From: a virus
Length of the DNA: 64,000 bases
Strand: one strand, 5' to 3'
Virus record (IMG/VR): IMGVR_UViG_3300012924_000001
Location: 14,335-78,334 of that record
Below the pieces are notes generated by a model, which saw nothing but the letters and a program-made list of their open reading frames with translations, was not told the DNA's origin and made no database searches. Position 1 is the stretch's first letter. Every line of letters begins with the position of its first letter. Below are positions 50,101 to 64,000 of the stretch, piece by piece. The position numbers were made by a program, and so were the translations under genes.

Positions 50101-52197
50101 ATGAGACCTTTTTTCTTTTCCCTCTTATTGCTTACTCTGCCGCTTATTACAAGAGCGCAACAGATCCTCAGCGGGAGCGATTATATATATAAGTATCAAA
50201 TGTCAGTGGGCAAGACAAATGCCAGTCCTATCAATATTACGCCTAGCCTAACATCCCCCGCTGCTTGGATCGAGATCGGGCGAGACAGCACAAATAAAGC
50301 GATGTTGTTACCCCGTGCTGTAGATACTGCTCTCGTCCTTAACCCCGTTAAAGGTCTTTTCCTTTATCAAATAAAAGATAGTACCCTTTACTACCGCAAC
50401 AGGCATAGGTGGGTAAGGGTCGGAGATGATGCCGTGTTAGCGGGTTATCTAAAAATAGCGGATAGTACAATTTATTATCCATACGCTTCTAATCCTTTGG
50501 GGTATATATCAACAGAAGCAGATCCTGTAGCAAATGGCAAAATTGTAACGTTAACACAAGGTACAGGCATCTTTATCGGAGGATCAGCTCAGTTTGTTGG
50601 AAACAATCCAACTTTTTCTATAGCGGCCAATAACACCACGGCTTTGTGGAATGCAAATGCGTTGCAAGGTATTCAAGTAGCGGCAGCTACTCCCACAACC
50701 GGGCAGCTGCTTCAGTTCAACGGTGTTAGCTGGCTTCCCCAGACAGTCACAACTTTGGGAACAGTAACGAGTGTGGGACTCGCTCTCCCTGGCGATGTGT
50801 TTAATATTGCTGGGTCTCCTGTTACCACATCCGGCACATTGAATGCCACTTTTAAACCACAGTTCGCTAATTTGTTCCTGGCCTCTCCCAATGGCATTAG
50901 CGGCCTTCCTTCGTTTAGGTCATTCGTCAATAATGATCTGCCGCTCTCAGGAGTTTCGCCCGGAACATTTGGTAGTGATACATCTGGATTAATTGTTACC
51001 GTTAATAGCCGGGGCATCATGACAAATATTAGCAATGCGCCTATTAACTTCTCAAGGTATATCATTAATCAAAGGGACAGCATACAGACCGCTGACATGC
51101 AGATATCAGGAAGGGCTGTTATAGGTGATAGTCTTGCCGTTGGTTCTACTACTCCCGCAACCGCCAACCTTCAGGTCACTGGCTCCATGAAGTTTGACCT
51201 TCCCAGTAGCGCTACCGGAGACCTGTATTACAGAAATTCTGCCGGTGAAGTCACTCGCCTACCGATTGGTACGTCCAATCAGGTATTAGTACCTTTTGGT
51301 GGTGTTCCTATATGGGGCGGTCTCCCAGGCAACTCCAACAGCTACATACGTAACAGCACAGGCTTGCAAACTTCAGCAGCCGCTTATATAGACGGTGTAT
51401 TCCGTTCACAGGGTGGTATGTGGTGTACAAAGGACGGCAACGGTGCATTTAGTCAATCCCTTTTCCTAAGCAACTTAGCAAACAACAGGGGGTGGAACTT
51501 TCAACTGAATGGAGATGCTGATCCGGGGTTAGATATATACGGAACTGATAACACTGGTTTATATACAAGGAGGTTCAGCATTCTGGCAAATGGGAATGTG
51601 GGGATAGGGAATGCCGCTCCAGCTGAAAAATTAGCTGTAACTGGGAATGCCATTATAAATGGGGATATCATTTTACCGGCCAATGGTACCCCGTGTGTGG
51701 GGTGCGTATTAACAGGGACGGACGCGGCCGGTCATGCGACTTGGCAATTTGCGACTGGCATGGTGATTCCCCTGGAAGATTTTATAACAGACGCCAATAA
51801 TAGTAGTGCTGGTACATATAGCCAGATGTACGCTTATACTATTCCGTCCAACACCTTAACCGCTACGGGAGATAAGATAAAGGCTACCTACGGGGGCCAA
51901 TTTGCCTCTAACGGCAATACAAAGGGGCTACAGGTGTTTATAAATGGTACAGGTAGTGGCGCGAGTGATGAGGCGGCTCATACAGGTGGATGGTCAACAA
52001 CAGTTACATTCATACGTACAGGAACTACAACGGGTAGGTTTGTAACAAATTTTGGCACATTGGGATCAAGAGAAGTAGCCTTAACAGGATTAGACTTTAC
52101 TGCTTCAATGACTTTTGAGTTGTGGGGGAAAGGAGGAGTTGCTACAGATGTAACAGCCATGCAGGGAGACATAATAAAATATAACGCTGCTCCATAG
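50101..52197 (+). CDS. Secreted tail-fibre-like protein (moron)
   Basis: Signal peptide ...ITRA-Q; GTVTSVGL, RLPIGT, GNVGIG fibre motifs. Confidence 0.75.
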   Translation: MRPFFFSLLLLTLPLITRAQQILSGSDYIYKYQMSVGKTNASPINITPSLTSPAAWIEIGRDSTNKAMLLPRAVDTALVLNPVKGLFLYQIKDSTLYYRNRHRWVRVGDDAVLAGYLKIADSTIYYPYASNPLGYISTEADPVANGKIVTLTQGTGIFIGGSAQFVGNNPTFSIAANNTTALWNANALQGIQVAAATPTTGQLLQFNGVSWLPQTVTTLGTVTSVGLALPGDVFNIAGSPVTTSGTLNATFKPQFANLFLASPNGISGLPSFRSFVNNDLPLSGVSPGTFGSDTSGLIVTVNSRGIMTNISNAPINFSRYIINQRDSIQTADMQISGRAVIGDSLAVGSTTPATANLQVTGSMKFDLPSSATGDLYYRNSAGEVTRLPIGTSNQVLVPFGGVPIWGGLPGNSNSYIRNSTGLQTSAAAYIDGVFRSQGGMWCTKDGNGAFSQSLFLSNLANNRGWNFQLNGDADPGLDIYGTDNTGLYTRRFSILANGNVGIGNAAPAEKLAVTGNAIINGDIILPANGTPCVGCVLTGTDAAGHATWQFATGMVIPLEDFITDANNSSAGTYSQMYAYTIPSNTLTATGDKIKATYGGQFASNGNTKGLQVFINGTGSGASDEAAHTGGWSTTVTFIRTGTTTGRFVTNFGTLGSREVALTGLDFTASMTFELWGKGGVATDVTAMQGDIIKYNAAP

Positions 52198-52215
52198 TGG
52201 AGCAGCGCTTTATTT
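52185..52215. terminator. Hairpin terminator between convergent units
   Basis: CGCTGCTCCA-TAG-TGGAGCAGCG. Confidence 0.65.
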
Positions 52216-52347
52216 CTTGTAGACTAGGTAGATACTATACCCAATTATACCAAAGCCCATCCCTCCCAGGATATAAATGGAGAAAAGGTCGTAGAAGCAA
52301 CAGGCATAAATATAGAAAATCAGCACCATTATTTTGTAGTACTTCAT
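52210..52347 (-). CDS. Small membrane protein (45 aa, not in ORF track)
   Basis: Manual translation MKYYKIMVLIFYIY... Confidence 0.45.
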   Translation of the reverse strand: MKYYKIMVLIFYIYACCFYDLFSIYILGGMGFGIIGYSIYLVYKK

Positions 52348-52353
52348 TAGCTA

Positions 52354-52695
52354 TTAATTTTGAGGTAAAAAGATAGGGCATATTTCTGCATCCATCCATA
52401 TTTTCGCATTGCTGTTCACCAAATTTGTTCTGTCCTTAAATTTAAATCCAATAACAGCCCCTTTGTTGATCTCCTTTTCTAATTCACTTCTGCTGTAGTA
52501 GCACAGTAGGCAAATGTGTGAAAAAGAATTTTCGCCCTTTTGTTTAACTTGTACTACTATTGAACAGGCCCCATTCTCTAATGCCATATCATTGTGCCTT
52601 GGGTTGTAGGCTTCAAAGGCTTCAAGATTATCAGCCTCTACACGCATCAAGGCCGCGTTTACCAATTCTATTAACTTCTTATACGTTAATCTCAT
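52354..52695 (-). CDS. Hypothetical protein, small-gene array
   Basis: Tightly packed co-oriented ORF. Confidence 0.6.
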   Translation of the reverse strand: MRLTYKKLIELVNAALMRVEADNLEAFEAYNPRHNDMALENGACSIVVQVKQKGENSFSHICLLCYYSRSELEKEINKGAVIGFKFKDRTNLVNSNAKIWMDAEICPIFLPQN

Positions 52696-52706
52696 AGTAG
52701 TGATTT

Positions 52707-53105
52707 TTAAAGTACATTAATTATTTCATATCCCAGCGCTTTGAGTCTGTTGAGTCCAGGTATATACGTGTCCTTTTCTTTTCCTGCAATAGAGAGATAG
52801 TCCGGAGATACTGTTACCTCTTCCTTGTAAAGCTGGATTCCTGCAAAACATAGCCCATTTAAGGCATTTCCAAATGGCCATGGTTCGGTTTCCCCAAGGT
52901 ACTGGTGAATAAGTTTCTCCCCTTCATAGACATCTATCCGGATATAGTTTTCCCTTGCATAGGAAACGTGTATTCTCCCGATAGCGTTTAGATCAGGCGC
53001 AGGGGACAATATCATATAGATTCCGATTTGTTTAACCCACCAGGACATGCTGATAGGTTTGTATTTCTTCGGTGGCTCTGTGCCGTCCTTTTTTCTTCTT
53101 CCCAT
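52707..53105 (-). CDS. Hypothetical protein, small-gene array
   Basis: Tightly packed co-oriented ORF. Confidence 0.6.
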   Translation of the reverse strand: MGRRKKDGTEPPKKYKPISMSWWVKQIGIYMILSPAPDLNAIGRIHVSYARENYIRIDVYEGEKLIHQYLGETEPWPFGNALNGLCFAGIQLYKEEVTVSPDYLSIAGKEKDTYIPGLNRLKALGYEIINVL

Positions 53106-53117
53106 TTGTTTATGGCT

Positions 53118-53381
53118 TTAAAAATACTTGATAAAATGCTCTATTTGTGAATGCACCAAGATAAGGTGTTCCGGTGTTTTATAGTAATTATGAGGGTTGT
53201 AAAAGTTCAATGCTAATTCCTCATAAAGATCAGGGAGATGAGTTTTTACATGCCTATCTATTATCTTTTTGTTAGCGCGTGTAGCCCCTTTCATTAGCTC
53301 TTCCCATTTGTTTATTGAAATAGCGGTGCAATTAGTCTCATATTCTAACCCGTAAATAAAATTTGGTGTTTTCATGATCAT
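53118..53381 (-). CDS. Hypothetical protein, small-gene array
   Basis: Tightly packed co-oriented ORF. Confidence 0.6.
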   Translation of the reverse strand: MIMKTPNFIYGLEYETNCTAISINKWEELMKGATRANKKIIDRHVKTHLPDLYEELALNFYNPHNYYKTPEHLILVHSQIEHFIKYF

Positions 53382-53396
53382 TGCTTTTTAGTTAGC

Positions 53397-53442
53397 TCCC
53401 GCTGGCGGTAATGAACCGCACAACGTCTGCCGTTCAGCGGGA
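53397..53442 (-). ncRNA. tRNA-like element lacking the anticodon arm
   Basis: UCCCGCUG/CAGCGGGA stem, D-like AACG-GCAGA-CGUU, T-like GCGG-UUCAUUA-CCGC. Confidence 0.55.
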
Positions 53443-53447
53443 AGGGA

Positions 53448-53570
53448 TTATATAATGTATGGAAGATAGGCCCCTATCTCAGGACATAGCATTAGGATAG
53501 CTATTATCCCAAAGAAAAAAAGGGCACATATAATCCAAAACAGGATATCTTTTATTTTGAGGCGCTTCAT
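53448..53570 (-). CDS. Small single-TM protein
   Basis: MKRLKIKDILFWIICALFFFGIIAIL. Confidence 0.55.
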   Translation of the reverse strand: MKRLKIKDILFWIICALFFFGIIAILMLCPEIGAYLPYII

Positions 53571-53598
53571 GGGTATCTGTTTAATAGATGAACAAGTA

Positions 53599-53862
53599 TT
53601 ATATCTGATCCATTTCAATGTTACTTCCAAAGAGGTGTGGATTTTCAAACTGTAACAGTATATTTAGTCTCAAAAGGATTAATATACTTTCCCGGTTAAG
53701 GTCTTCAAATTCCTGGTCAGCCTTGTAAAGGTTGTATGCTTCTTTCTTTATTCCTTCTTGTTCTTTATCGTACTTCTCTTGATCAATCTGTGACATCCCC
53801 CTGTTCAGTAAATAACGCCTTTTTAGACTTTTAACTTTCCGGTTTAATTCAGCTTTTGTCAT
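53599..53862 (-). CDS. Hypothetical protein, paralog of 57229..57504
   Basis: Shared IK.EA..LY..D...R.NI.L.FE.PH.FGS motif. Confidence 0.65.
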   Translation of the reverse strand: MTKAELNRKVKSLKRRYLLNRGMSQIDQEKYDKEQEGIKKEAYNLYKADQEFEDLNRESILILLRLNILLQFENPHLFGSNIEMDQI

Positions 53863-53919
53863 AAATTAATTGTTTTATGGTTTGAAAATATGATAGTCTT
53901 ACGGGACTATCCGTTATGT

Positions 53920-54186
53920 TTATCTTCCTTTAAAACTGTCAATGAGTGGTCTATAATTCTCATAAGCAGCATTCAAAGTACGTTCAACAAAATCCTTTCT
54001 GAAGTGGTAGGGAGCCTCTTTAGGCTTAACTCCTCTTTCGTAATAGTCTTTTAGCTGGTCCTGGCTCCATTCCTCCCACGCTTGTTTAATTGCGGTGTCT
54101 ATTGTATTGTACAGTGAGGAATCAAACATCTCCGCTTTGTGGTTGGCGATCTCGATGGCAATACGGTTATATAGTGGCTGTGGCAT
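53920..54186 (-). CDS. Hypothetical protein, small-gene array
   Basis: Co-oriented ORF. Confidence 0.6.
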   Translation of the reverse strand: MPQPLYNRIAIEIANHKAEMFDSSLYNTIDTAIKQAWEEWSQDQLKDYYERGVKPKEAPYHFRKDFVERTLNAAYENYRPLIDSFKGR

Positions 54187-54197
54187 AATGAAAAGAT

Positions 54198-54455
54198 TTA
54201 ATGGTGAATAAGAGGGATATTACTAGCGTGTTGTTGTGCCAACATTGTAAGATGGCAGTTAATTTCCCATTGCAATGAGTCATTGAGGCCGGAAATAAAA
54301 ATTAAAAGATTATCGGCTGTTCTTCTTTTGCCGATTAGAAAGGCCTGATCTGAGGCCGGGATGTCTCTAAAGATCGTGTTAATTAGTTGGGCTGCACCCA
54401 ATGTGTTTAACTGTTCGTAGGCGTGTAGCAGCGGTTGAATTGTTGTTTGTTCCAT
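54198..54455 (-). CDS. Hypothetical protein, small-gene array
   Basis: Co-oriented ORF. Confidence 0.6.
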   Translation of the reverse strand: MEQTTIQPLLHAYEQLNTLGAAQLINTIFRDIPASDQAFLIGKRRTADNLLIFISGLNDSLQWEINCHLTMLAQQHASNIPLIHH

Positions 54456-54480
54456 AGATGTTAAAGTGTGTGGTGAATAA

Positions 54481-54891
54481 TCAATATTGAAATTCTGAAT
54501 AATGCCAGTTCTTTGGCTGTTGTCTATTCCAGCATTCTAACAATAGTTTACCATTCTCAGCGGTAAGGCCATATATAAAACTACAGCCTTCCTTATTACT
54601 GGGGAGGTGTTTCCATTTGTACCAGTATTCTGAAGCGCCTTTATAATACTCATGGGTATACGATATACCCTTCGATCCAGTATGTTCACTTAGCCACATT
54701 ACATCGTTGTAACTTTTTGGATCAACATTTAATTTAAAGGTCAGAATGTTGCCGTACTCTGGAATGTTGTATTTGTCCCTCCAAAGGGAATACATTGTTA
54801 AGGCCTCATTAGGTGTAATCACTTCTGGACTGATAGTTGAAAATTCAATAGTCCCCAAAAATTCTTCTATGTTATAAACTGCATATGTCAT
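54481..54891 (-). CDS. Hypothetical protein, small-gene array
   Basis: Co-oriented ORF. Confidence 0.6.
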   Translation of the reverse strand: MTYAVYNIEEFLGTIEFSTISPEVITPNEALTMYSLWRDKYNIPEYGNILTFKLNVDPKSYNDVMWLSEHTGSKGISYTHEYYKGASEYWYKWKHLPSNKEGCSFIYGLTAENGKLLLECWNRQQPKNWHYSEFQY

Positions 54892-54932
54892 TTTATTCGG
54901 TTTTAGTGAACACCCGGCATGTACCGGGCCGC

Positions 54933-54960
54933 ACGGTTTTTACGCCCTAATCACTCTGTA
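54933..54960. repeat. 28-bp direct repeat, copy 1
   Basis: ACGGTTTTTACGCCCTAATCACTCTGTA; one mismatch to 55452-55479. Confidence 0.9.
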
Positions 54961-55406
54961 AAATCAGTTTCTTTTGGCCATTCTGTAGGCGATATCCAAT
55001 TATCAGAACCACCGCTACCGTCCATATCTGCAAGTTCTACGGCTATATGCTGCTCAAGGGTTAAACCGTTAATACTCTTGCCCCCCTCAATAATAGAAGC
55101 GGCAAATTCTTGTGCAATTTTATATGCAAAATCGTACATCTGTGAGCTACTGAAGTCCCTGTCGTCTTGCGGTTCTAACTCATCGTATGGGATTGGGGAA
55201 ACTCCCTTTTTCATAGTAAAGCCATTGAACCACTTTCCAACTAAGGAAGATGCTATAGATAATGCAATCCCTTTGTCAGTCAGTTTATTTATGATGGTTT
55301 TTTCTGAGTAATTTTGATGTTTAAGAAAAAAGTTGTTAATCCAATTTTGGATATTTTCCGAGAAATACAGTTCGCGGAGGTCTTCAAATTTGATTTCATT
55401 TTCCAT
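54951..55406 (-). CDS. Acidic hypothetical protein
   Basis: ORF lying between the two 28-bp repeats. Confidence 0.6.
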   Translation of the reverse strand: MENEIKFEDLRELYFSENIQNWINNFFLKHQNYSEKTIINKLTDKGIALSIASSLVGKWFNGFTMKKGVSPIPYDELEPQDDRDFSSSQMYDFAYKIAQEFAASIIEGGKSINGLTLEQHIAVELADMDGSGGSDNWISPTEWPKETDFTE

Positions 55407-55451
55407 GGTAGTATATTTTAGTTTTTTGAATGTTGAATGAATACTGGAGGA

Positions 55452-55479
55452 ACGGTTTTTACGCCCTAATCACCCTGTA
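55452..55479. repeat. 28-bp direct repeat, copy 2
   Basis: ACGGTTTTTACGCCCTAATCACCCTGTA. Confidence 0.9.
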
Positions 55480-55703
55480 GCACCTACTTTGATCCATTCA
55501 TTAAAGCCTAAATTAAAACGTATAGGATCGTTTTTTCGTAACAAAACGCCAAGTATATGGTTGGCATGAGCGCTATATATAACGGAGCGTGCTATTTTGC
55601 CGTTTTTAAAGTAGCAAAATTGTTCGTATGCCTCTTCAGCTGAGTAAATATCCGCGAAAAGGTCATTTAAGTAGTCGGTATATGCTTTTTTGGTCTTATT
55701 CAT
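55470..55703 (-). CDS. Hypothetical protein (LRKNDPIRFNLGFNEW motif)
   Basis: Recurrent phage early-gene motif. Confidence 0.6.
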   Translation of the reverse strand: MNKTKKAYTDYLNDLFADIYSAEEAYEQFCYFKNGKIARSVIYSAHANHILGVLLRKNDPIRFNLGFNEWIKVGATG

Positions 55704-55705
55704 TT

Positions 55706-56278
55706 TCAATCTTTTGAATGTTGAATAAAAATTGGTTCTACGGGTATGCTGTGAATAGCGCCGGTAAAATGGCCCTTATCAAAAGCGCTTCCTAATGAGG
55801 TAAAAGTAACCTCATCTGTATTGCGCACTACCTTTTTTAGTGTCTCTGTATTGGGCTTATGTTCGCCAGCATAAATAGCGATAGATTGGTAGGGAAGTAT
55901 TTGCATCATATTCGCTATTCTTTTTCGTGGTAGTAGATATTTAATAAATAAGCAATTATCATACTGGGCATAGTTTCGTACATATACATTTACTAGAGTG
56001 CAAATAAAAGAGGTGCAATATCCCCATTCTCCCGACCTAACGATAGTTGCTTTCTTGTCAAGTAAAGAGTTTAACTTGTTAACTGTGTCCTGTAAGAAAT
56101 CCGGGATGGGATATACTGACCACGCTAAGCGGTCTACTTCCATATGCATATCGCGCTCAAATATACGTCCGCTTGCAAAGACTATATCATAAAGTTCTGA
56201 AAGCGCACCCCTATTGCGCAGGGGACCATGTTTGATAAATAATTCAATTGCTTTTTCTTTGATCTGTTCGTTTGTCAT
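55706..56278 (-). CDS. Hypothetical protein, small-gene array
   Basis: ATGA overlap at 56275-56278 supports this start. Confidence 0.6.
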   Translation of the reverse strand: MTNEQIKEKAIELFIKHGPLRNRGALSELYDIVFASGRIFERDMHMEVDRLAWSVYPIPDFLQDTVNKLNSLLDKKATIVRSGEWGYCTSFICTLVNVYVRNYAQYDNCLFIKYLLPRKRIANMMQILPYQSIAIYAGEHKPNTETLKKVVRNTDEVTFTSLGSAFDKGHFTGAIHSIPVEPIFIQHSKD

Positions 56279-56553
56279 AATGATGATTTTATCTTTTTTA
56301 AATGCTTCTTGCAAAACCATCCCGAAAAGACGCTGCATTGATAATATGTTGTTTTGTATCCTACAGCCTGTTTTTTACAGTGCCATGCGCTACAGACGGG
56401 TAGGTCAAAGCTAACGTCCTTTATGCGCTCTGTTTTCACTCCAAAGCTGTCTGTATAGAACGGTACTCGCTTTTCCTGCGCCTGTGAAAATAGGGGTAGC
56501 AGAATGAGAATTATTATATGCTTCATTTGGTACGATGTTTTATGTGTTTCCAT
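56275..56553 (-). CDS. Small protein with signal-peptide-like segment
   Basis: MKHIIILILLPLFSQA-Q; four Cys. Confidence 0.5.
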   Translation of the reverse strand: METHKTSYQMKHIIILILLPLFSQAQEKRVPFYTDSFGVKTERIKDVSFDLPVCSAWHCKKQAVGYKTTYYQCSVFSGWFCKKHLKKIKSSL

Positions 56554-56563
56554 ACAAGTATAT

Positions 56564-56821
56564 TTAAAGAGTGATTTTTATTTCTTTTATACCGAGCGCT
56601 TTTGCATAAGAAGCGAGAAACGCAATACCTCCGTTTTGTTTGGTTCGGTTCAATTCACTTTCAAAATGTGTAATATTAGTACGGTTACATCTTACTCTTT
56701 TCGCTAAATCTTCTATTGAGATGTTAAGGACATCTCTAAATAGTTTCATTTGCTGACCTGTATGTTTGTCCGCATTTATTGTAACTGATTTTAGTTTGAC
56801 GTCTTTTCGCTGTCTTTTCAT
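56564..56821 (-). CDS. XRE-family HTH protein
   Basis: ISIEDLAKRVRCNRTNITHFE...YAKALG. Confidence 0.75.
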   Translation of the reverse strand: MKRQRKDVKLKSVTINADKHTGQQMKLFRDVLNISIEDLAKRVRCNRTNITHFESELNRTKQNGGIAFLASYAKALGIKEIKITL

Positions 56822-56822
56822 T

Positions 56823-57209
56823 TTATTGTAATTCAGCTTTACTTAACTCTTCACAAAATTCCTTAAACTCTTCTGTGTAATTCCCCTCTTCGTCGAATAC
56901 TTCATAATCAATAGAGTCATACTCGCAAAAAAGAGGGTAATTTTCTTTTGAATTATATGTTGTTTTGAAAAACAATGGTGTCTCATTCAGGGTGAAAGTG
57001 ATATTCATAACAGTCAAATGACCATCACTTACAAGCCCAATTACAAATGGTTCTCCGTCATGCTCGAATTGCATGTCATTCAAACCAAAGCCCTCATGAA
57101 TAAGTATTGTTAACCTGCCAATACATTTTAATAGCTTTGATACGTTGTAGGCGTCACGCGGCAACACGTGAAAAAAGCCTGTATCTATTGTTTGCCCTGT
57201 GTGGTACAT
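56823..57209 (-). CDS. Hypothetical protein, small-gene array
   Basis: Co-oriented ORF. Confidence 0.6.
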   Translation of the reverse strand: MYHTGQTIDTGFFHVLPRDAYNVSKLLKCIGRLTILIHEGFGLNDMQFEHDGEPFVIGLVSDGHLTVMNITFTLNETPLFFKTTYNSKENYPLFCEYDSIDYEVFDEEGNYTEEFKEFCEELSKAELQ

Positions 57210-57228
57210 ATATTTTTTGTTTGAAGGA

Positions 57229-57504
57229 TTATAATTGTTTTATATCTATACTGCTGCCAAAACGATGTGGCTCCTCAAAACGAAGATGGATATTTATACG
57301 CATCAATATTTTTAGACTACCTAAACTCATTATTTCAATTTTCAGATCAAGAAGATATAATCTTAATGCCTCTTCTTTAATATGCCCCATTTCTGTATGA
57401 TAAGCGTCTTCCTTTTTTTCTTGGGCCTTTAAATAATGATTCTTTAGCTTTTTGATTTGGTTATTATATTGACGGGATGTTAATGTTTTTTGTGTGTTTT
57501 CCAT
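57229..57504 (-). CDS. Hypothetical protein, paralog of 53599..53862
   Basis: Shared motif. Confidence 0.65.
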   Translation of the reverse strand: MENTQKTLTSRQYNNQIKKLKNHYLKAQEKKEDAYHTEMGHIKEEALRLYLLDLKIEIMSLGSLKILMRINIHLRFEEPHRFGSSIDIKQL

Positions 57505-57515
57505 GCTTATATAAT

Positions 57516-57719
57516 TTAAGCGGTTACTTCAGACTTGTATAATTCGTATGCGGCTTTCCGTAAAGCTGTTGGGGTAAGGTAAAACTTGCCATTGCCATGC
57601 AGTTCATTACGGCCAAGATATTCCGCTACTTTATTTTGCACAGTAGTACGCGGTTCTTTTATCGGCTCTTTGAGTTTCTTACACGCGGTTTGGAATTGAT
57701 TCCATGTTAGTTTGTCCAT
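57516..57719 (-). CDS. Hypothetical protein, small-gene array
   Basis: Co-oriented ORF. Confidence 0.6.
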   Translation of the reverse strand: MDKLTWNQFQTACKKLKEPIKEPRTTVQNKVAEYLGRNELHGNGKFYLTPTALRKAAYELYKSEVTA

Positions 57720-57739
57720 ATGCTATAATTAAATGGTGA

Positions 57740-58156
57740 TTAATAGGTTTTGAATGCGCGTTTCAGCGTTCTTTTAGCGGAGGTATGGTATTCACTATCC
57801 GAGTTAAAATAGTCGTTAATATACTCCTTTAAATGGTCACACTCGGCACTATTGGACCATTCTATTTGCAAGGGAGTGTAGTTTTTAAAATAATCCTTAT
57901 CCGTATCACCTTCCTGAACGGCGAAGCGGCCTAACAGCCCTGCCATAGCTACTAGGCTGTCAATCCCATAAAGTATAGACGGTTTGAAATCTTTTCCACT
58001 AAATAACTCTTTACCGTTCCACCAAAAAGAGTAACGTACATTATCGCCCCCTGTATAAAATGTATAACAGGCAATTTTTAGCTTGCGCATTATCAGGGTA
58101 GATAACAGATTTTCATCTGCTAACAATTGTTCGTGTGTGGGCTGTTTTGTTTCCAT
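57740..58156 (-). CDS. Hypothetical protein, small-gene array
   Basis: Co-oriented ORF; GDTDKDYF..YTP.Q.EW motif. Confidence 0.6.
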   Translation of the reverse strand: METKQPTHEQLLADENLLSTLIMRKLKIACYTFYTGGDNVRYSFWWNGKELFSGKDFKPSILYGIDSLVAMAGLLGRFAVQEGDTDKDYFKNYTPLQIEWSNSAECDHLKEYINDYFNSDSEYHTSAKRTLKRAFKTY

Positions 58157-58164
58157 ATTAAAAG

Positions 58165-58440
58165 TTATTTAATACATGCGGTTATTGTTTGTCCTGTAGC
58201 GCTTACCTGGATGGGTTTACCAATGTTGGCAAGAATAGTCTCATATTCCTGGGTAGCTATTTTGATAGCTTCCGCGTACTTTTCGGAGTTATCAAACACT
58301 TTCAGCTCTAAGGGTCTGAAATAAACATGCGCTATCGTATGATAGTCCCCAGCCGTTTCTTTGCGCTTATCTGCGTATACATAAGCATTCGGATAAGTGC
58401 CAATGAATAGCCAATCAGGGATTACAATTTTTGTGTTCAT
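58165..58440 (-). CDS. Hypothetical protein, small-gene array
   Basis: Co-oriented ORF. Confidence 0.6.
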   Translation of the reverse strand: MNTKIVIPDWLFIGTYPNAYVYADKRKETAGDYHTIAHVYFRPLELKVFDNSEKYAEAIKIATQEYETILANIGKPIQVSATGQTITACIK

Positions 58441-58499
58441 AGTATACAGTTTTAAGTATTAATCAATAAACTCAATGACTTTATTCTTTGTTTGTATTA

Positions 58500-58880
58500 T
58501 CAAAAAATAATTTCACCGTAAAATACAGTCTGTAGTAAAACATCAGCGGTTACGGCATCGTCTATGTCATTTATAAAATCGCTTAAATAATCAAACGGCA
58601 TTTTTGAGACGCCTATATGTACGTCTGATAGTTTAATTTGTTTTATACCCTCACTTCCTTCCTTATCCTCAAACGATAGCGTTCCCCCATCCTTTAAAAT
58701 TTGCATCCAAACATCTTCAATGCAGGGGTTTGTTAGTGAGGCCTTGGCTGTCTTATACTCCTGTTCATCGTAGGTCAATTCAATTCCGTGAGCGGCCATA
58801 TACCCACTGCTAACAGCATTACAGAGGGCCAAATGAAAGTACTTTTCTGATTCCTCATGCGTTAATAATATCTGTGCCAT
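58500..58880 (-). CDS. Hypothetical protein (DAVTADVLLQ...GEII motif) directly downstream of hammerhead 1
   Basis: Recurrent phage motif. Confidence 0.65.
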   Translation of the reverse strand: MAQILLTHEESEKYFHLALCNAVSSGYMAAHGIELTYDEQEYKTAKASLTNPCIEDVWMQILKDGGTLSFEDKEGSEGIKQIKLSDVHIGVSKMPFDYLSDFINDIDDAVTADVLLQTVFYGEIIF

Positions 58881-58897
58881 ATTCTTTATTTTTATTT

Positions 58898-58950
58898 GGT
58901 TAAGACCCCGCTTGTCGGGGTTTCACAGAGTAACCGATCATCAGTTAACC
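58898..58950 (-). ncRNA. Type I hammerhead ribozyme (variant), HH1
   Basis: GGUUAA-CUGAUGA-UCGG UUACU CUGU-GAAA-CCCCG ACAAG CGGGG-UC^UUAACC. Confidence 0.85.
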
Positions 58951-58958
58951 TTTAGTCC

Positions 58959-59129
58959 TCATCCGGGGTATGTAATGGGAGTTGTCATCCATTCCGTATC
59001 TATTACTAGCACATTCGCTGTGCTGAATATCTCATACTCAGAATTTTGTTCTAGTTCCTCAATGGCATCCGCTACACTGAGAGCGGACTGTATCTTTATT
59101 TTGATGATAGCATAAATTGTTGTTTCCAT
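58959..59129 (-). CDS. Small acidic protein (56 aa, not in ORF track)
   Basis: METTIYAIIKIK...; preceded by TAACCTTTAAAC. Confidence 0.65.
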   Translation of the reverse strand: METTIYAIIKIKIQSALSVADAIEELEQNSEYEIFSTANVLVIDTEWMTTPITYPG

Positions 59130-59161
59130 AATAAATAAGTTTAAAGGTTATTAATACTATT

Positions 59162-59347
59162 CTATACCAAACTAAAATTACGCCACCATGAGCCAATAGT
59201 ATGCCGTTGTCCTAGATCATTGGTTACGGTTACTTCCATTAATGCAGCAACGCTTTCAATCGGGTTTTTAAGCTCATACGTGCGGCCTTTAGTAAAGCAT
59301 TTACCAAGGTTATACAGGTCTTTTTTCGCTTTTATTTTCGTGTACAT
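59162..59347 (-). CDS. Hypothetical protein, small-gene array
   Basis: Co-oriented ORF. Confidence 0.6.
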   Translation of the reverse strand: MYTKIKAKKDLYNLGKCFTKGRTYELKNPIESVAALMEVTVTNDLGQRHTIGSWWRNFSLV

Positions 59348-59348
59348 A

Positions 59349-59591
59349 TCAATGTAGTTTAGCGGTTAATTTTGTTTGAAAGCGGCCCCCAAAGGAAAAG
59401 TAGGTGTTACATGGTTCTATTTCCTTACGGTCAAAATGCATTTTTGCGTCATCTGGGGTTATCCAGCCGTTTGTAATGGCCTTGTTGATCTCTGTAGGAG
59501 TATACAGTTCATCCCTTACCAGAAAGGTATTGGAAAAGTGGACACTCAGAGGGACTTGATCTGAACTTTTTTTCACTTTGTAGTATAACAT
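59349..59591 (-). CDS. Hypothetical protein, small-gene array
   Basis: Co-oriented ORF; ELYTP...YFSFG.RF motif. Confidence 0.6.
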   Translation of the reverse strand: MLYYKVKKSSDQVPLSVHFSNTFLVRDELYTPTEINKAITNGWITPDDAKMHFDRKEIEPCNTYFSFGGRFQTKLTAKLH

Positions 59592-59612
59592 ATATAGTGG
59601 TTTTAGGATTAT

Positions 59613-59867
59613 TTAATCGGCCATTAGTGGCTGTTTGGCTATGTGTGTTACCAGCATTCGGACAGCGAGAACGTTTAATTGTTCTAGCGCGCTGATAGCC
59701 GATTCCGCTGTATAATATGCATGTGTGCGCATCTGTTTAAGTGACTTGTTTCTACATTTGCCATCTGAATAGTGGTAAGTACGTCCGGCGCTATCGACAA
59801 TATACCAGTAGGTAGTAGCACGACCAGCTAAGAAGTATCGATTGCTCTTTATAGTGTACAGGTACAT
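59613..59867 (-). CDS. Hypothetical protein, small-gene array
   Basis: Start at MYLYTIK after an A-rich leader. Confidence 0.55.
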   Translation of the reverse strand: MYLYTIKSNRYFLAGRATTYWYIVDSAGRTYHYSDGKCRNKSLKQMRTHAYYTAESAISALEQLNVLAVRMLVTHIAKQPLMAD

Positions 59868-59889
59868 AATAATGTAGTTTAAGGAGTAT

Positions 59890-60420
59890 CTAAAAATCAA
59901 AATCGATAACAACTGTAGTTCCTTTCTTCTTACCAAAGCCACCCCCTAACACGTCATTAAATGGCACATACCAGTATTTACGCGCCTGGTGGTTATATCC
60001 TTGCGCCACATATACCTGAGCGGATACACGGCCACCCTTAAACAGGAGCTTAAAGTAATCGCCCTTTTTAACCTTCTCAATTGTGGTTTGGCCTTGTATC
60101 TTATTGATAATTTCCGCATTCGCTTTGATTACCATATCCAGCCTATTACTTATGTCATTAAGAGCTATCGTATTACCTTCCCGTTGTAGCTTATCGGCAA
60201 GGGCACTTAACCCATCTACAGGCACGGTTTGAGCGTTATAAATCTCATTTACATAAGCGGCTTTAGTCCTTCCCATCGCTCCACACACAGTACAGCGTAC
60301 CTGAGAAGATTTAGTAGGTTTTATCTTACCAGTGCGATAACTCCAATAGTGCCTGTATTGCGTAATTACATATTTGCTTCTATCGCGTGGCCTGCATTGG
60401 CAGGAAAATCGTATTGACAT
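59890..60420 (-). CDS. Hypothetical protein with N-terminal Zn-ribbon
   Basis: CQC...CTVC. Confidence 0.6.
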   Translation of the reverse strand: MSIRFSCQCRPRDRSKYVITQYRHYWSYRTGKIKPTKSSQVRCTVCGAMGRTKAAYVNEIYNAQTVPVDGLSALADKLQREGNTIALNDISNRLDMVIKANAEIINKIQGQTTIEKVKKGDYFKLLFKGGRVSAQVYVAQGYNHQARKYWYVPFNDVLGGGFGKKKGTTVVIDFDF

Positions 60421-60430
60421 AATAACAGGT

Positions 60431-60676
60431 TTACAGGTTATTGAAAGAGGGCTGATAACCGATCATACCCTTGTGTAACATACCAACTATAGTAAACTCT
60501 GATTCGCTGCCGTTTAGCGTTATTCCGTCCATATGTGTTAATCCTATGCAATAATCATTCAGCAGGCATATAATAAGATACTGCCCTATGCGGTCTTTAA
60601 TAACACGATAAGCAGTAGATGCCCACTGTACATTGTGACCTGAATCAACAGCTTGTTTAATTTCTGTAACTGTCAT
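60431..60676 (-). CDS. Hypothetical protein, small-gene array
   Basis: Co-oriented ORF. Confidence 0.6.
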   Translation of the reverse strand: MTVTEIKQAVDSGHNVQWASTAYRVIKDRIGQYLIICLLNDYCIGLTHMDGITLNGSESEFTIVGMLHKGMIGYQPSFNNL

Positions 60677-60696
60677 AATAGAGTTCGGTTTAAAGG

Positions 60697-60966
60697 TTAA
60701 TACATTTTATCTATGGGCAGATGTTCGCCCCCGTCTGCATCCCTACAGATTGCGCGGTAGCCAGCACAATCAATGGCCGGTCTATTTTCATGTGCGAGGC
60801 GCTTTACTTGCGTTTCAAGTGCCAATAATTCGTCATTATCCCCCTCATCTTCTTGTGGGGAATAATCAGCTACAAAGGGCATTGTGAAATAAGGCCAATC
60901 CTGCGTCAATTGTCCGTTGTGGTCTAATTTCCATATTTCTAGTGTCCAATTATTATTTGTTTCCAT
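60697..60966 (-). CDS. Acidic hypothetical protein directly downstream of hammerhead 2
   Basis: Co-oriented ORF. Confidence 0.6.
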   Translation of the reverse strand: METNNNWTLEIWKLDHNGQLTQDWPYFTMPFVADYSPQEDEGDNDELLALETQVKRLAHENRPAIDCAGYRAICRDADGGEHLPIDKMY

Positions 60967-60988
60967 CTGAAAAGATTTAAAGGTTATT

Positions 60989-61041
60989 GACTAATAGGGG
61001 CCTTTTACCCCTTTCACGTAATAAACGATCATCGGTTAGCC
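60989..61041 (-). ncRNA. Type I hammerhead ribozyme (variant core CCGAUGA), HH2
   Basis: GGCUAA-CCGAUGA-UCGU UUAUU ACGU-GAAA-GGGGU AAAAG GCCCC-UA^UUAGUC. Confidence 0.75.
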
Positions 61042-61052
61042 TTGTAATAGGT

Positions 61053-61358
61053 TTAAAGGAATTTATAAATAAGCCTGATACTCACTATATCCCCTTCTTT
61101 GCTATCTATCTGTACCGTGTTTATGTCTATGACTGAAAATTCATCTTTTTTAGGCCAATCAACCCAGCTGTCTTTAAAAGCCTGATCTTTTTCTCGCCAT
61201 GTTTTTAGGGCAAAAGAATTGCTTTGTACGATAGATACTTCCCTTTCATCATGTAGCTGTATGAGCTTTAGATTCCCCTGTTTGTCTGCCCAATGTAATT
61301 CAGAATATATTTTTGTACCAGGGGTAACACGTTTTTTGAAGTCTGAAATAGTCTGCAT
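61053..61358 (-). CDS. Hypothetical protein, small-gene array
   Basis: Start at MQTISDF after the TAACCTTTAAAC motif. Confidence 0.6.
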   Translation of the reverse strand: MQTISDFKKRVTPGTKIYSELHWADKQGNLKLIQLHDEREVSIVQSNSFALKTWREKDQAFKDSWVDWPKKDEFSVIDINTVQIDSKEGDIVSIRLIYKFL

Positions 61359-61368
61359 AGTAATAGGT

Positions 61369-61560
61369 TTAAAGGTTAAGGTTTTTAATATAGTTTTTTG
61401 CAACTGTCCATGCCTTACTGCGCGTGGGTTGGGCAGCGTTTAAATAAAAACTATCCGATATAGTTTTACTATAAAACATTATAACAGGATAGTATTGTAC
61501 ATGCCCTTTGTGATTTGATTTGGACGTGGAGGGCTTGTAAGTTACGTTTTGCTGTGCCAT
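61369..61560 (-). CDS. Hypothetical protein, small-gene array
   Basis: Preceded by the motif. Confidence 0.6.
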   Translation of the reverse strand: MAQQNVTYKPSTSKSNHKGHVQYYPVIMFYSKTISDSFYLNAAQPTRSKAWTVAKNYIKNLNL

Positions 61561-61571
61561 AATCTAATGGT

Positions 61572-61835
61572 TTACAGGTTATCATTGATGTGTTGAACGA
61601 TGGCTGTATAAGTGGAGTCCGGCACTGGCTCCCGCTGTATTTTGGGCAGGAAGGGGGAGATAGGGTACAACTGCACACGATATACAGGCAGTTCATTTGA
61701 CTTGTCCTGTGTGATAAAGATATGCAGGCCGTCCGGCGCATTGTCTGCTATCCAGTCCATGAGTAATTCAAGGGCCGGGCCTTCCTTTGATATAAGGAGG
61801 GCGTTTTTATTGATAAGATAATATGCTTTGTTCAT
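61572..61835 (-). CDS. Hypothetical protein, small-gene array
   Basis: Preceded by a motif variant. Confidence 0.6.
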   Translation of the reverse strand: MNKAYYLINKNALLISKEGPALELLMDWIADNAPDGLHIFITQDKSNELPVYRVQLYPISPFLPKIQREPVPDSTYTAIVQHINDNL

Positions 61836-61846
61836 GATACGATAGT

Positions 61847-62038
61847 TTAAAGAGTTTGTAGTTTTAAAAGTATATCGGTCCAGTATGCAACAATGGTTAT
61901 ATCATCGGTATAGTATATGACATTGGGGTCATTCCACATTGTACGCTCCTGTGCCTGCTCTATTGCTTTATTTAGATCGGTAACCTCAATAGACTTGCCT
62001 AATAGATCAGTTATGTAAATTTTGTTTGTAGTGTCCAT
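61847..62038 (-). CDS. Hypothetical protein, small-gene array
   Basis: IEVTDLNKAIEQA...YWTD motif. Confidence 0.6.
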   Translation of the reverse strand: MDTTNKIYITDLLGKSIEVTDLNKAIEQAQERTMWNDPNVIYYTDDITIVAYWTDILLKLQTL

Positions 62039-62055
62039 AGTATGTTAGTTAAGAG

Positions 62056-62379
62056 TTATTGATTAATATACAGTGTAGCATACTGATACCCCCAAAAATT
62101 AGACTGTATGAGCAGCATGTTTTTGCTGTTCCTTATAGCTATTTTCATACAGTCATTAACAAATTGCTGAGTGTCCTTAATTAATCTTGGACCAACAATA
62201 CTAAAATCAAAACTATAGAAGCTATGTTTTGTATCAACGGTTGTTCTACAGGTATCAATCTCGCAAACAATAGCCTTGTTTTGCTTGGCATAGTCATATA
62301 CTATAGTAACCTGCTCAGCGGGTGATAATTCATTAATGTTTGCCGGTAAGCCTATTATATTGGGAATGGTGATTGCCAT
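62056..62379 (-). CDS. Hypothetical protein, small-gene array
   Basis: Preceded by a motif variant. Confidence 0.6.
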   Translation of the reverse strand: MAITIPNIIGLPANINELSPAEQVTIVYDYAKQNKAIVCEIDTCRTTVDTKHSFYSFDFSIVGPRLIKDTQQFVNDCMKIAIRNSKNMLLIQSNFWGYQYATLYINQ

Positions 62380-62389
62380 AAGAACAGGT

Positions 62390-62629
62390 TTAAAGATTAT
62401 AGTTAGGATGTGCGGTCATCTTTAGCAAGGGACTAACGCACACGTGTTGAAATGTGATAGGGTCTGTAACTGCCCATAAGAGCCTGTGGCGGTCCGCTGG
62501 CTTGTAAGACTTGTAGTTGATACGCTGATCTATTGTAAGCTCAAAATACGGGCTGTAATAGCCGTGGAAATGATTTTGAAAGATGATACTACGGAAGGTA
62601 AGTTGCTGGGAAGTGTTGTTTGTGGTCAT
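62390..62629 (-). CDS. Hypothetical protein, small-gene array
   Basis: Preceded by the motif. Confidence 0.55.
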   Translation of the reverse strand: MTTNNTSQQLTFRSIIFQNHFHGYYSPYFELTIDQRINYKSYKPADRHRLLWAVTDPITFQHVCVSPLLKMTAHPNYNL

Positions 62630-62662
62630 AGTATGTTAGTTTAAAGGTTAAGAGTGATCCAC

Positions 62663-62959
62663 TCAAATGTTATACGGTAACTGGTACAATTCTGTACTGT
62701 TAAGGGTATAAAAATGCACGGGTTCAGCTTGCCGCTGTTCAATAAATGTCACATACTCATCAAAGGACACTTCTTTGGGGTCACGCCCATTTAAGTACAT
62801 ATTGAGTGAAGCGTCCTTTGTGTCGTTGCGCATAGCGAAGGTGTTAAAGGCTGTATCAGGCTGTTGGTCATTGGCAACTATGTATATTACTATACCTTGT
62901 TCAAAGAGCAGCCGCGCCTGTCTGTGTGTGATTTCTAACAATGTTAGGGTGTGGTTCAT
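62663..62959 (-). CDS. Hypothetical protein, small-gene array
   Basis: Preceded by a motif variant. Confidence 0.6.
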   Translation of the reverse strand: MNHTLTLLEITHRQARLLFEQGIVIYIVANDQQPDTAFNTFAMRNDTKDASLNMYLNGRDPKEVSFDEYVTFIEQRQAEPVHFYTLNSTELYQLPYNI

Positions 62960-62969
62960 AGTAAACAGG

Positions 62970-63341
62970 TTAAAGGTTATTAGATTCCATTTTAACAGGC
63001 GCTAAATACTCCCGCGTGCCGATATGCTTAAAGAGTAGTGCAGCGCTGCCTGTATCCGCGTCTTTCATCCCCATGTACATATAATGACCCGCAAAGTTAG
63101 GGGACGCGGGATCAGCAGATAATATACCGGCGTTGATAGCATGAGCAAAGCAGTCTTTTGCGCTTGGACCGTTTATAGGGAAGCTCTTTTTAAGGTCCTC
63201 AATCTGCTGCTTAATTGTTAAGCGAGTAGCGGGATCAATAGTACGAACCATACGCGCAGTGAGCAGCTCAATGAGCTTATGGGGATCGGTAGTGTTAGCG
63301 ATCATGCGATCTATGATAATAGTCATGTTCATTCCGTTCAT
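62970..63341 (-). CDS. Hypothetical protein (YMYMG...FKHI.TREYL motif)
   Basis: Preceded by the motif. Confidence 0.6.
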   Translation of the reverse strand: MNGMNMTIIIDRMIANTTDPHKLIELLTARMVRTIDPATRLTIKQQIEDLKKSFPINGPSAKDCFAHAINAGILSADPASPNFAGHYMYMGMKDADTGSAALLFKHIGTREYLAPVKMESNNL

Positions 63342-63359
63342 GATATATAAGTTTAAAGG

Positions 63360-63563
63360 TTAAAGTGAATTGATTTCATTATCTAAAAGGTGGTGCCCCG
63401 CTTCCACGTACTTTGTGGCATATACTTCAAAGCCGTCTCCTTCAGGGAAGCGCGTTTTGAAGTCGTTATAGATGGCTTTAAGCGCTTTACCGCTTGTAAT
63501 ACTGCGCTTATGAGTGGCAAAATAATGTACGCCTTTAAGTGACACGATAATTTCGTAGTACAT
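63360..63563 (-). CDS. Hypothetical protein (YEIIVSL.G.HYFAT..RSI motif)
   Basis: Recurrent phage early-gene family. Confidence 0.65.
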   Translation of the reverse strand: MYYEIIVSLKGVHYFATHKRSITSGKALKAIYNDFKTRFPEGDGFEVYATKYVEAGHHLLDNEINSL

Positions 63564-63573
63564 ACAATGTAGT

Positions 63574-63801
63574 TTAAAGGGTTGATGAATGTGTAATGTC
63601 TACCATATCCCCGGCCTTTACTACTTTCTTACGTAAGCGGGCGTGATATTTAGCTTCCTGTAAGGCGACGGCGTCCTGTCCTATACGAGTCCAGTTTGCG
63701 AAATCTTTATCAGTCTCATAGATAACAATATATGTTGCTGTTATATACGGTTGTGTCGCAAAGATAAAATTACCTTCTTTGGTGGTTATTGCGGTATGCA
63801 T
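63574..63801 (-). CDS. Hypothetical protein, small-gene array
   Basis: Preceded by the motif. Confidence 0.6.
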   Translation of the reverse strand: MHTAITTKEGNFIFATQPYITATYIVIYETDKDFANWTRIGQDAVALQEAKYHARLRKKVVKAGDMVDITHSSTL

Positions 63802-63819
63802 AGTTATGTAGTTTAAAGG

Positions 63820-64000
63820 TTATTCAGCAATAGTAACTTTATAATACCCTTTGGGATCAATCCAGTACTTAAACCCCCCATTGTCACACGTATTGGTTTG
63901 TTCTATCAATTCATATGCACAATCAGCTAGTGTCTCCTGCGCTAATGTATAGAAAAGTCCCTGTAAGGTTGGTTCGTTACGTTGTTCTTTTGCTTCATTG
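63820..64000 (-). CDS. 3' part of a gene truncated by the window end
   Basis: Open frame ...GFKYWIDPKGYYKVTIAE* whose TAA begins the motif. Confidence 0.55.
   Translation of the reverse strand, partial: NEAKEQRNEPTLQGLFYTLAQETLADCAYELIEQTNTCDNGGFKYWIDPKGYYKVTIAE

Follow-up and report, generated by a model that had tools for sequence, protein, structure and literature searches.

We observed two type I hammerhead ribozyme motifs, HH1 and HH2, and a second family of conserved RNA elements, here called motif A, in the spacers of a small-gene array of an uncultured soil phage. The array lies in a 64,000-nucleotide (nt) stretch of DNA, hereafter the window (40% GC), which forms the last 64 kb (positions 14,335 to 78,334) of the 78,334-bp IMG/VR virus record IMGVR_UViG_3300012924_000001. 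Both hammerheads are placed in the sense strand of the array and belong to a family whose other members, from other phages, covary in all three stems. We consider it probable, from the sequence data presented below, that the array is transcribed as one RNA which the hammerheads would cut, and that the other structured elements in its spacers are separate things.

Two type I hammerheads in the array

A reading of this DNA from its letters alone (the original prediction) had placed hammerheads at 58898 and 60989 in an array of about 38 co-oriented small open reading frames (ORFs) with very short spacers. We found the array and both motifs exactly at these positions:

52210..64000, minus strand: small-gene array, 38 co-oriented ORFs of 45-210 aa (ORF list and spacer table)
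58898..58950, minus strand: HH1, type I hammerhead; 51.6 bits, E 1e-10 with model R3; predicted cut after C58904; next ATG at 58880
60989..61041, minus strand: HH2, type I hammerhead; 52.0 bits, E 9e-11 with model R3; predicted cut after A60995; next ATG at 60966

Scores of 52 bits (E ~1e-10) are well beyond chance, and judged by sequence HH1 and HH2 are genuine type I hammerhead motifs. Each has the three-helix type I topology, with an open stem I of 6 bp, a stem II of 3 bp plus a U-U mismatch, and a stem III of 5-6 bp. In HH1, GGUUAA and UUAACC form stem I, the core (CUGAUGA...GAAA) is the full consensus, and C17 completes a GUC cleavage triplet. HH2 has the same 53-nt architecture, with stems that differ in sequence from those of HH1 yet pair: stem I is GGCUAA/UUAGUC, stem III is a GC hairpin, the core reads CCGAUGA (C4, the U4C variant), and A17 gives the triplet CUA. 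Stem II of both copies is a 13-nt unit that starts with a U10.1-U11.1 mismatch, which replaces a G10.1-C11.1 pair at the base of the stem. G12, A13 and A14, the A15.1-U16.1 pair and a nucleotide other than G at position 17 (H17) are present in HH1 and HH2, as they are in all 20 family copies. From HH1 to the next ATG there are 17 nt, and from HH2 there are 22 nt; the range is 17-35 nt in the 20 family copies.

Family evidence

Relatives of the two motifs were collected from IMG/VR and from JGI metagenome contigs with a 27-nt search pattern that covered the core and stem II, excluded stem III and the 3' strand of stem I, and allowed C or T at position 4. Every match to this pattern completes stem I, stem III and a non-G nucleotide at position 17. 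The hammerhead model (A3/R3) was built solely from the copies of other phages (an alignment of 18 sequences, with the window copies left out). When R3 was run over the 64-kb window, HH2 (52.0 bits) and HH1 (51.6 bits) were followed by a next match of 13.4 bits. In the 18-sequence alignment 95.8% of cells pair, compared with 33-45% when the partners are slid, a percentage that is inflated by selection because some members were gathered with a pattern drawn from HH1 and HH2 and others were added with a structure-requiring regular expression; the variety of pair types, and the pairing outside the search pattern, are not inflated in this way. Compensatory changes occur at 12 of 16 pairs, and covariation is seen in all three stems among the 18-20 family members. 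Across the 20 copies H17 is never G, the A15.1-U16.1 pair is fixed and stem I always has 6 bp; U4 is present in 19, HH2 being the sole C4 copy. The genes that flank the family copies have no protein similarity to the phage under study.

Canonical hammerheads with a G10.1-C11.1 pair adjoin U-U forms at several loci, with six copies in 2.5 kb in L012, two in L001, and three each in L133 and L135. The arrays in L012, L133 and L135 surround single genes. As G-C and U-U copies are mixed in the same arrays, the U-U form is evidently a variant within ordinary hammerhead arrays. In L012:7495-10034 (plus strand), L133 and L135:7011-8181, the 3-6 hammerheads of this subfamily are spaced 300-900 nt apart, and all of them score under the Rfam thresholds.

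Rfam searches of the window, the region and the single elements, at gathering thresholds and at E up to 10, gave no ribozyme, tRNA or riboswitch family, and RF00163 run alone over the genome matched neither HH1 nor HH2. With RF03152 and HH9, the canonical sisters in L012 reach 20-25 bits, where the cut-offs are 52-56. Since Rfam also misses these sisters, little can be read into the absence of matches to HH1 and HH2; its models have low sensitivity for this subfamily, and such arrays are consequently under-annotated. The window copies resemble Hammerhead_1 (RF00163) and RAGATH-1-hammerhead (RF03152) in their type I topology, their core and a short, small-looped stem II, but they are unmatched by these models at E up to 10, lack the RAGATH-1 upstream hairpin, and have U-U in place of G10.1-C11.1. 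A blastn search with 58400-61400 gave no match in the phage database, and the gene downstream of HH2 has no relatives in IMG/VR.

The closest precedent is the set of clustered prophage hammerheads for which processing of long transcripts into gene-length mRNAs was proposed (Perreault et al. 2011, PMC3088659); both mRNA processing and circular products had thus been put forward in print for clustered phage hammerheads in 2011. In those clusters, as here, hammerheads lie between phage genes of one orientation, on either side of a single gene or a short block, processing of polycistronic RNA was proposed, circular or spliced products were considered, and natural U10.1-U11.1 and U4C variants are found. 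In contrast, the phage described here is uncultured and from soil, has only two copies, and has start sites without Shine-Dalgarno sequences; its hammerheads belong to a subfamily in which the open stem I is always 6 bp and the stem II unit 13 nt long, and which is under every Rfam hammerhead threshold. HH1 and HH2 add a case to a known and still unexplained phage habit, that of keeping self-cleaving ribozymes between small accessory genes.

Layout of the array

The ends of the record overlap by 94 bp, so that the record is effectively circular; public runs that contain it are soil metagenomes only, none of them recorded as RNA. The array extends past the circular junction with two more ORFs (genome 392-875). 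Its spacers are mostly 1-33 nt long and exceed 50 nt in seven cases (spacer table). Compact structured RNA had been predicted for several of the longer spacers, and six of these seven do carry a structured or repeated element; the seventh, 58441-58499, is AT-rich and, judged by sequence, without a GC-rich structured element like those of the other six. We found no Shine-Dalgarno sequences ahead of the array start codons, and no Bacteroidota-type -7 box (TAnnTTTG) in any array spacer, with five such boxes lying within ORFs. The sole box of this type that precedes the array is TACCTTTG at genome 926 (minus strand). Genome positions 876-1654, outside the window across the junction, form a gene-free segment of ~780 bp between the first minus-strand genes of the array and plus-strand genes; this segment is likely to be the divergent promoter region of the array. 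The other end of the array is marked by the following feature:

52183..52209, no strand assigned: strong, bidirectional terminator-like hairpin of 12 bp, between the array end and a convergent gene of 698 aa (terminator scan)

Short spacers, the lack of a -7 box in them and one strong closing terminator make a layout that fits one operon, and the array is most likely a single leftward transcription unit of ~12.6 kb. When 30 array ORFs were searched against Pfam and PHROGs, 28 remained without a named function or family; the PHROGs matches were four weak ones (three to unnamed families and one to a 'transcriptional regulator'), and there was one further match to an unnamed family. The host-takeover or anti-defence role originally proposed for the array found no support in these searches, which detected no such function in any ORF.

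Several spacers contain the motif CCUUUAAA(C), 8-15 nt ahead of start codons. There are 9 minus-strand copies between 59140 and 63819 (for example 63812-63819, 63352-63359, 62640-62647, 60689-60696 and 59140-59147) and one more before HH2. The window has 19 matches where 5.8 are expected, a count reached in none of 100 shuffles. The motif is confined to the upstream half of the array. In a host without Shine-Dalgarno sites, it may serve as a phage-specific signal for translation initiation or as a junction signal.

Motif A, a conserved RNA element in the hammerheads' niche

The original prediction had also pointed out a duplicated junction motif in two long spacers, which is motif A (GUGA-UUAGGGCG). 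The repeat is real, with 54933-54960 and 55452-55479 identical at 27 of 28 positions, and the full copy belongs to a conserved family of RNA elements:

54905..54955, minus strand: motif A, full copy; 77 bits with model R2; same architecture in 5 other phages
55452..55479, minus strand: motif A, truncated copy; 5' block alone, without hairpin P2 and without the 3' strand of stem P1; 38.7 bits with R2

In order, the full copy consists of a 5-bp P1 (AGUGA/UCACU), an invariant 22-nt block (UUAGGGCGUAAAAACCGUGCGG), the variable hairpin P2, and UGU. The 5' strand of P1 includes the UGA stop codon of the upstream gene, and the next ATG lies 13 nt past P1. Pattern scans and model R2 together gave 9 full copies in 6 phages whose genes next to the motif are dissimilar; one of the five other phages has three copies within 900 nt, around single genes. 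From copy to copy P2 changes completely in sequence and in length (14-44 nt) and its pairing is always kept; the outermost pair of P1 covaries, and the 5' block and a GUUCAC block are almost invariant. All copies are sense to their flanking genes, with the next ATG 13-21 nt past P1 in 8 of the 9. A single weak protein match is all that links the flanks of any of these phages to the genome under study. The host type of L149 uses Shine-Dalgarno sites whereas that of the window does not, so that motif A is not confined to one host group. No Rfam family matched it, even when 81 nt were searched.

The copy at 55479-55452 is unable to form P1 or P2, which suggests a remnant of recombination. BLASTP (E 0.85) ruled out that the two genes ending in the 28-nt repeat are paralogues. 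An 18-mer of motif A gave two matches in bacterial genomes, both without the remainder of the motif and within chance expectation. Positions 54941-54950 (minus strand), where the invariant block has GGGCGUAAA after AUUA, resemble a conserved segment of 16S rRNA near E. coli position 570; this resemblance is probably due to chance.

We conclude from its conservation and predicted pairing that motif A is an uncatalogued RNA family in the hammerheads' niche. It shares with them the orientation and the distance to the next start codon, and we regard it as the more useful outcome of this analysis. Because the niche is the same, by analogy the most likely role of motif A is that of an RNA-processing signal or a protein-binding operator. 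A stronger proposal, that motif A is a new class of self-cleaving ribozyme, or an equivalent processing signal, interchangeable with hammerheads between small accessory genes, seems decidedly improbable to us; if it were true, the array would carry two unrelated classes of portable mRNA-cutting modules. Leads of this kind have been productive before: the pistol, hatchet and twister-sister ribozymes were reportedly found by Weinberg et al. in 2015 through genomic neighbourhoods common with hammerheads. Motif A resembles those cases in its hammerhead niche, its size of ~50 nt, its invariant core with a variable hairpin, and its sometimes tandem arrangement around single genes. It differs from them in having no sequence or covariance-model similarity to those classes, and its self-cleavage is hypothetical.

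Spacer elements at mosaic joints

In contigs of a relative with ~90% identity, from other soil runs, the segment 60976-61043, which holds HH2, is kept with 3 differences and the flanks jump to other genes; the same relative keeps 54902-54957 (motif A) while the flanking sequence again jumps to other genes. The match of another contig stops at 60988, the 3' edge of HH2. Among IMG/VR relatives, a gene with 49% identity to 58500-58880 has in front of it not HH1 but a different three-way-junction element. With HH2 and motif A kept at mosaic joints and HH1 replaced, the spacer elements behave as exchangeable modules at cassette boundaries. That both kept elements form islands, with neighbouring genes that differ in the relative, suggests a possible further role for intergenic RNA modules, in guiding how accessory genes are shuffled. 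In related genomes, then, the elements can be called interchangeable spacer modules in a loose sense; the comparison did not show the coordinated system that the original prediction had envisaged.

The element that precedes the homologue of gene 58500-58880 lies at L005:3920-4003 (plus strand; identical in L004) and is a three-way-junction RNA with a minimum free energy (MFE) of -26.8 kcal/mol and a z of -3.4. In this relative genome, which is 93% complete, we found no hammerheads of the family described here. L005 also has a motif of CCAAUAAACAAA plus a small hairpin that is repeated in several of its spacers.

Two copies of CCUUUAAA, at 61052-61059 and 60976-60983 (minus strand), bracket HH2, as if the hammerhead had been inserted into a standard spacer or recombined through it. 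The hammerhead stem I/core sequence GGCUAACUGAUGA and the motif A 5' block GUGAUUAG each start with stops in two reading frames, and the ORF upstream often terminates within the element: at the stem I UAA in L001, and at a UGA or UAG of GUGAUUAG in G006 and the window. A cassette that opens in this way would terminate any ORF joined to it.

Proposed processing and competing explanations

In the scheme that we favour, a single transcript would start in the promoter region past the circular junction (near genome 926) and run to the terminator at 52183-52209. Once transcribed, both hammerheads would adopt the three-stem fold and self-cleave, with the cut after C58904 in HH1 and after A60995 in HH2. 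Cleavage would leave a 2',3'-cyclic phosphate on the upstream RNA, whose end the stem II and stem III hairpins would cap, and the downstream mRNA would begin with a 5'-OH and a short leader of 23-28 nt before the next start codon. The result would be that stability and translation of the gene blocks are uncoupled. Motif A (portable, full and truncated), a unique three-way fold and a weak terminator-like hairpin would be separate elements. We infer one-unit transcription, cleavage in vivo and the effect on mRNA from the layout and the motifs. The original claim that the spacer elements divide the transcript stands in part: the hammerheads are genuine and in the sense strand, and their predicted self-cleavage would split the RNA, but no functional link among its five elements was found.

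Cleavage of clustered prophage hammerheads has been shown both in vitro and in E. coli, natural hammerheads with U10.1-U11.1 have been described, and this mismatch had been shown to support more cleavage than other mispairs (PMC3088659; Perreault et al. 2011). U4C is likewise a natural variant, with considerably lower activity in vitro that is yet sufficient in vivo for a viroid (PMC3088659). Its full consensus core and GUC triplet make HH1 a promising candidate, and it is probably active. HH2 is probably slower than a hammerhead with the consensus core, owing to its C4.

Several observations weigh against cleavage, or against the family evidence that supports it. The Rfam hammerhead models stay under threshold on both copies. 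The search pattern came from HH1 and HH2 themselves, and for the members gathered with it, resemblance in the core and stem II is in part a product of the search. The C4 of HH2 is unique among all pattern matches, though C or T was allowed. The nearest-neighbour MFE structure of HH1 is an alternative hairpin that is 3.4 kcal/mol more stable than the hammerhead fold, and the pairing probability of HH1 stem I is ~0 once 40-nt flanks are included. We identified no tertiary contact between stem I and loop II of the kind that gives fast cleavage at physiological Mg2+. A conserved loop II and the fixed length of stem I hint at some contact between the two. A pseudoknot of loop II with the AAUAA on the 3' side of HH2 was considered and rejected; the complement is present in 4 of 20 copies, and 3.6 are expected on swapping loops and flanks.

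The same elements could be mainly portable junction cassettes for shuffling small accessory genes, with cleavage weak, lost or incidental. We think this unlikely as the main account, though it draws on much of the evidence given above: the contigs of the relative that retain exactly 60976-61043 and 54902-54957 while their flanks jump, the match that stops at 60988, the position of HH2 between two CCUUUAAA copies, the truncated motif A copy at 55452-55479, the activity-lowering C4 of HH2, and the occurrence of both motif families in phage contigs without protein similarity in flanking genes. Recombination alone, however, leaves unexplained why all 13 core nucleotides are kept, why H17 is never G, and why compensatory changes are found in three stems; nor does it account for the orientation of the copies, all of them sense to the genes, or for their constant spacing to the next ATG. 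A precedent exists in the PeSL cassettes of T4-type phages (Arbiol et al. 2010, PMC2839356), which are likewise short conserved intergenic elements between small accessory genes at mosaic joints. As in that system, the joints of the relative bracket HH2 and motif A; yet a PeSL is an early promoter plus a stem-loop terminator, whereas what is conserved here is a ribozyme fold and an RNA motif, in spacers where we recognised no promoter and from which the promoter consensus is absent. Cassette and cleavage roles are not mutually exclusive.

It is very improbable that the GC-rich hairpins in the long spacers, hammerhead stem III among them, are terminators or attenuators that split the array into several transcription units. 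No U tract lies behind the stem III hairpins, motif A or the fold at 53397, all three are missing from the list of the terminator scan, and no promoter-like -7 boxes follow these hairpins. What fits such an explanation is the hairpin at 53892-53911, which with its U-rich tail matches the terminator pattern, and the total for the region in the same scan, which is 21 terminator-like sites against 9.6 expected.

Equally little credence can be given to an integrated system in which five kinds of RNA element jointly cut a takeover transcript, and the hammerheads free a 2.1-kb unit (60994-58904) that is circularised by an RtcB-type ligase. The two predicted cuts do bracket an RNA of 2091 nt with seven ORFs (60966-58959), and tandem hammerheads would leave it with 5'-OH and cyclic-phosphate ends, which is the chemistry that RtcB accepts. 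Also in keeping with such a system are the structured or repeated elements in six of the seven long spacers, and the different three-way-junction element that takes the place of HH1 before the homologue of gene 58500-58880. But we found no RtcB encoded by the phage, HH2 has C4, a variant of lowered activity, and a search for circular or spliced RNAs from clustered phage hammerheads detected none (Perreault et al. 2011, PMC3088659); the circularised unit thus lost its support. The elements belong to unrelated families and are found separately elsewhere (G006 and G007 have motif A without a hammerhead, and G003 has neither), the 53397 element has no tRNA features by any tool and no conservation in an 18-mer scan of IMG/VR, and no ORF has a detectable anti-defence or takeover function. 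Both the coordinated toolkit and the 2.1-kb circular RNA are accordingly speculation. We retain, as the probable account, cutting of a single transcript by the two hammerheads.

Other spacer elements and minor observations

Two further elements occupy long spacers in the downstream half of the array:

53397..53442, minus strand: three-way-junction fold of 46 nt; 8-bp outer stem enclosing two hairpins; MFE -26.8 kcal/mol, z -3.7
53892..53911, minus strand: hairpin of 7 bp with 3 GC pairs, then a U-rich tail, AUAUUUUCAA (terminator scan); z -3.3

A tRNA mimic had been proposed at 53397. A stable fold does exist there, and none of 200 shuffles equalled its stability, but tRNA mimicry found no support: ARAGORN made no call, Rfam gave no match even in a 91-nt search, and the fold, read from its sequence, is without an anticodon arm and without CCA, and has a T-like loop (UUCAUUA) that is off-consensus and lacks A58. 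We found no second copy in the genome, and an 18-mer scan of IMG/VR was empty. The gene that adjoins the fold has two homologues; a search for related loci with this gene gave nothing. The hairpin at about 53892-53911 is present as originally described and has a terminator-like pattern. It looks like a weak intrinsic terminator or attenuator, the criterion being a simple consensus to which the match is weak.

One ORF upstream of HH2, listed at 61053-61403 (minus strand) with a TTG start, has an alternative ATG start near 61359, which is 10 nt after a CCUUUAAAC motif. This ATG is more likely to be the true start, and with it the apparent 35-nt overlap with the upstream ORF disappears.

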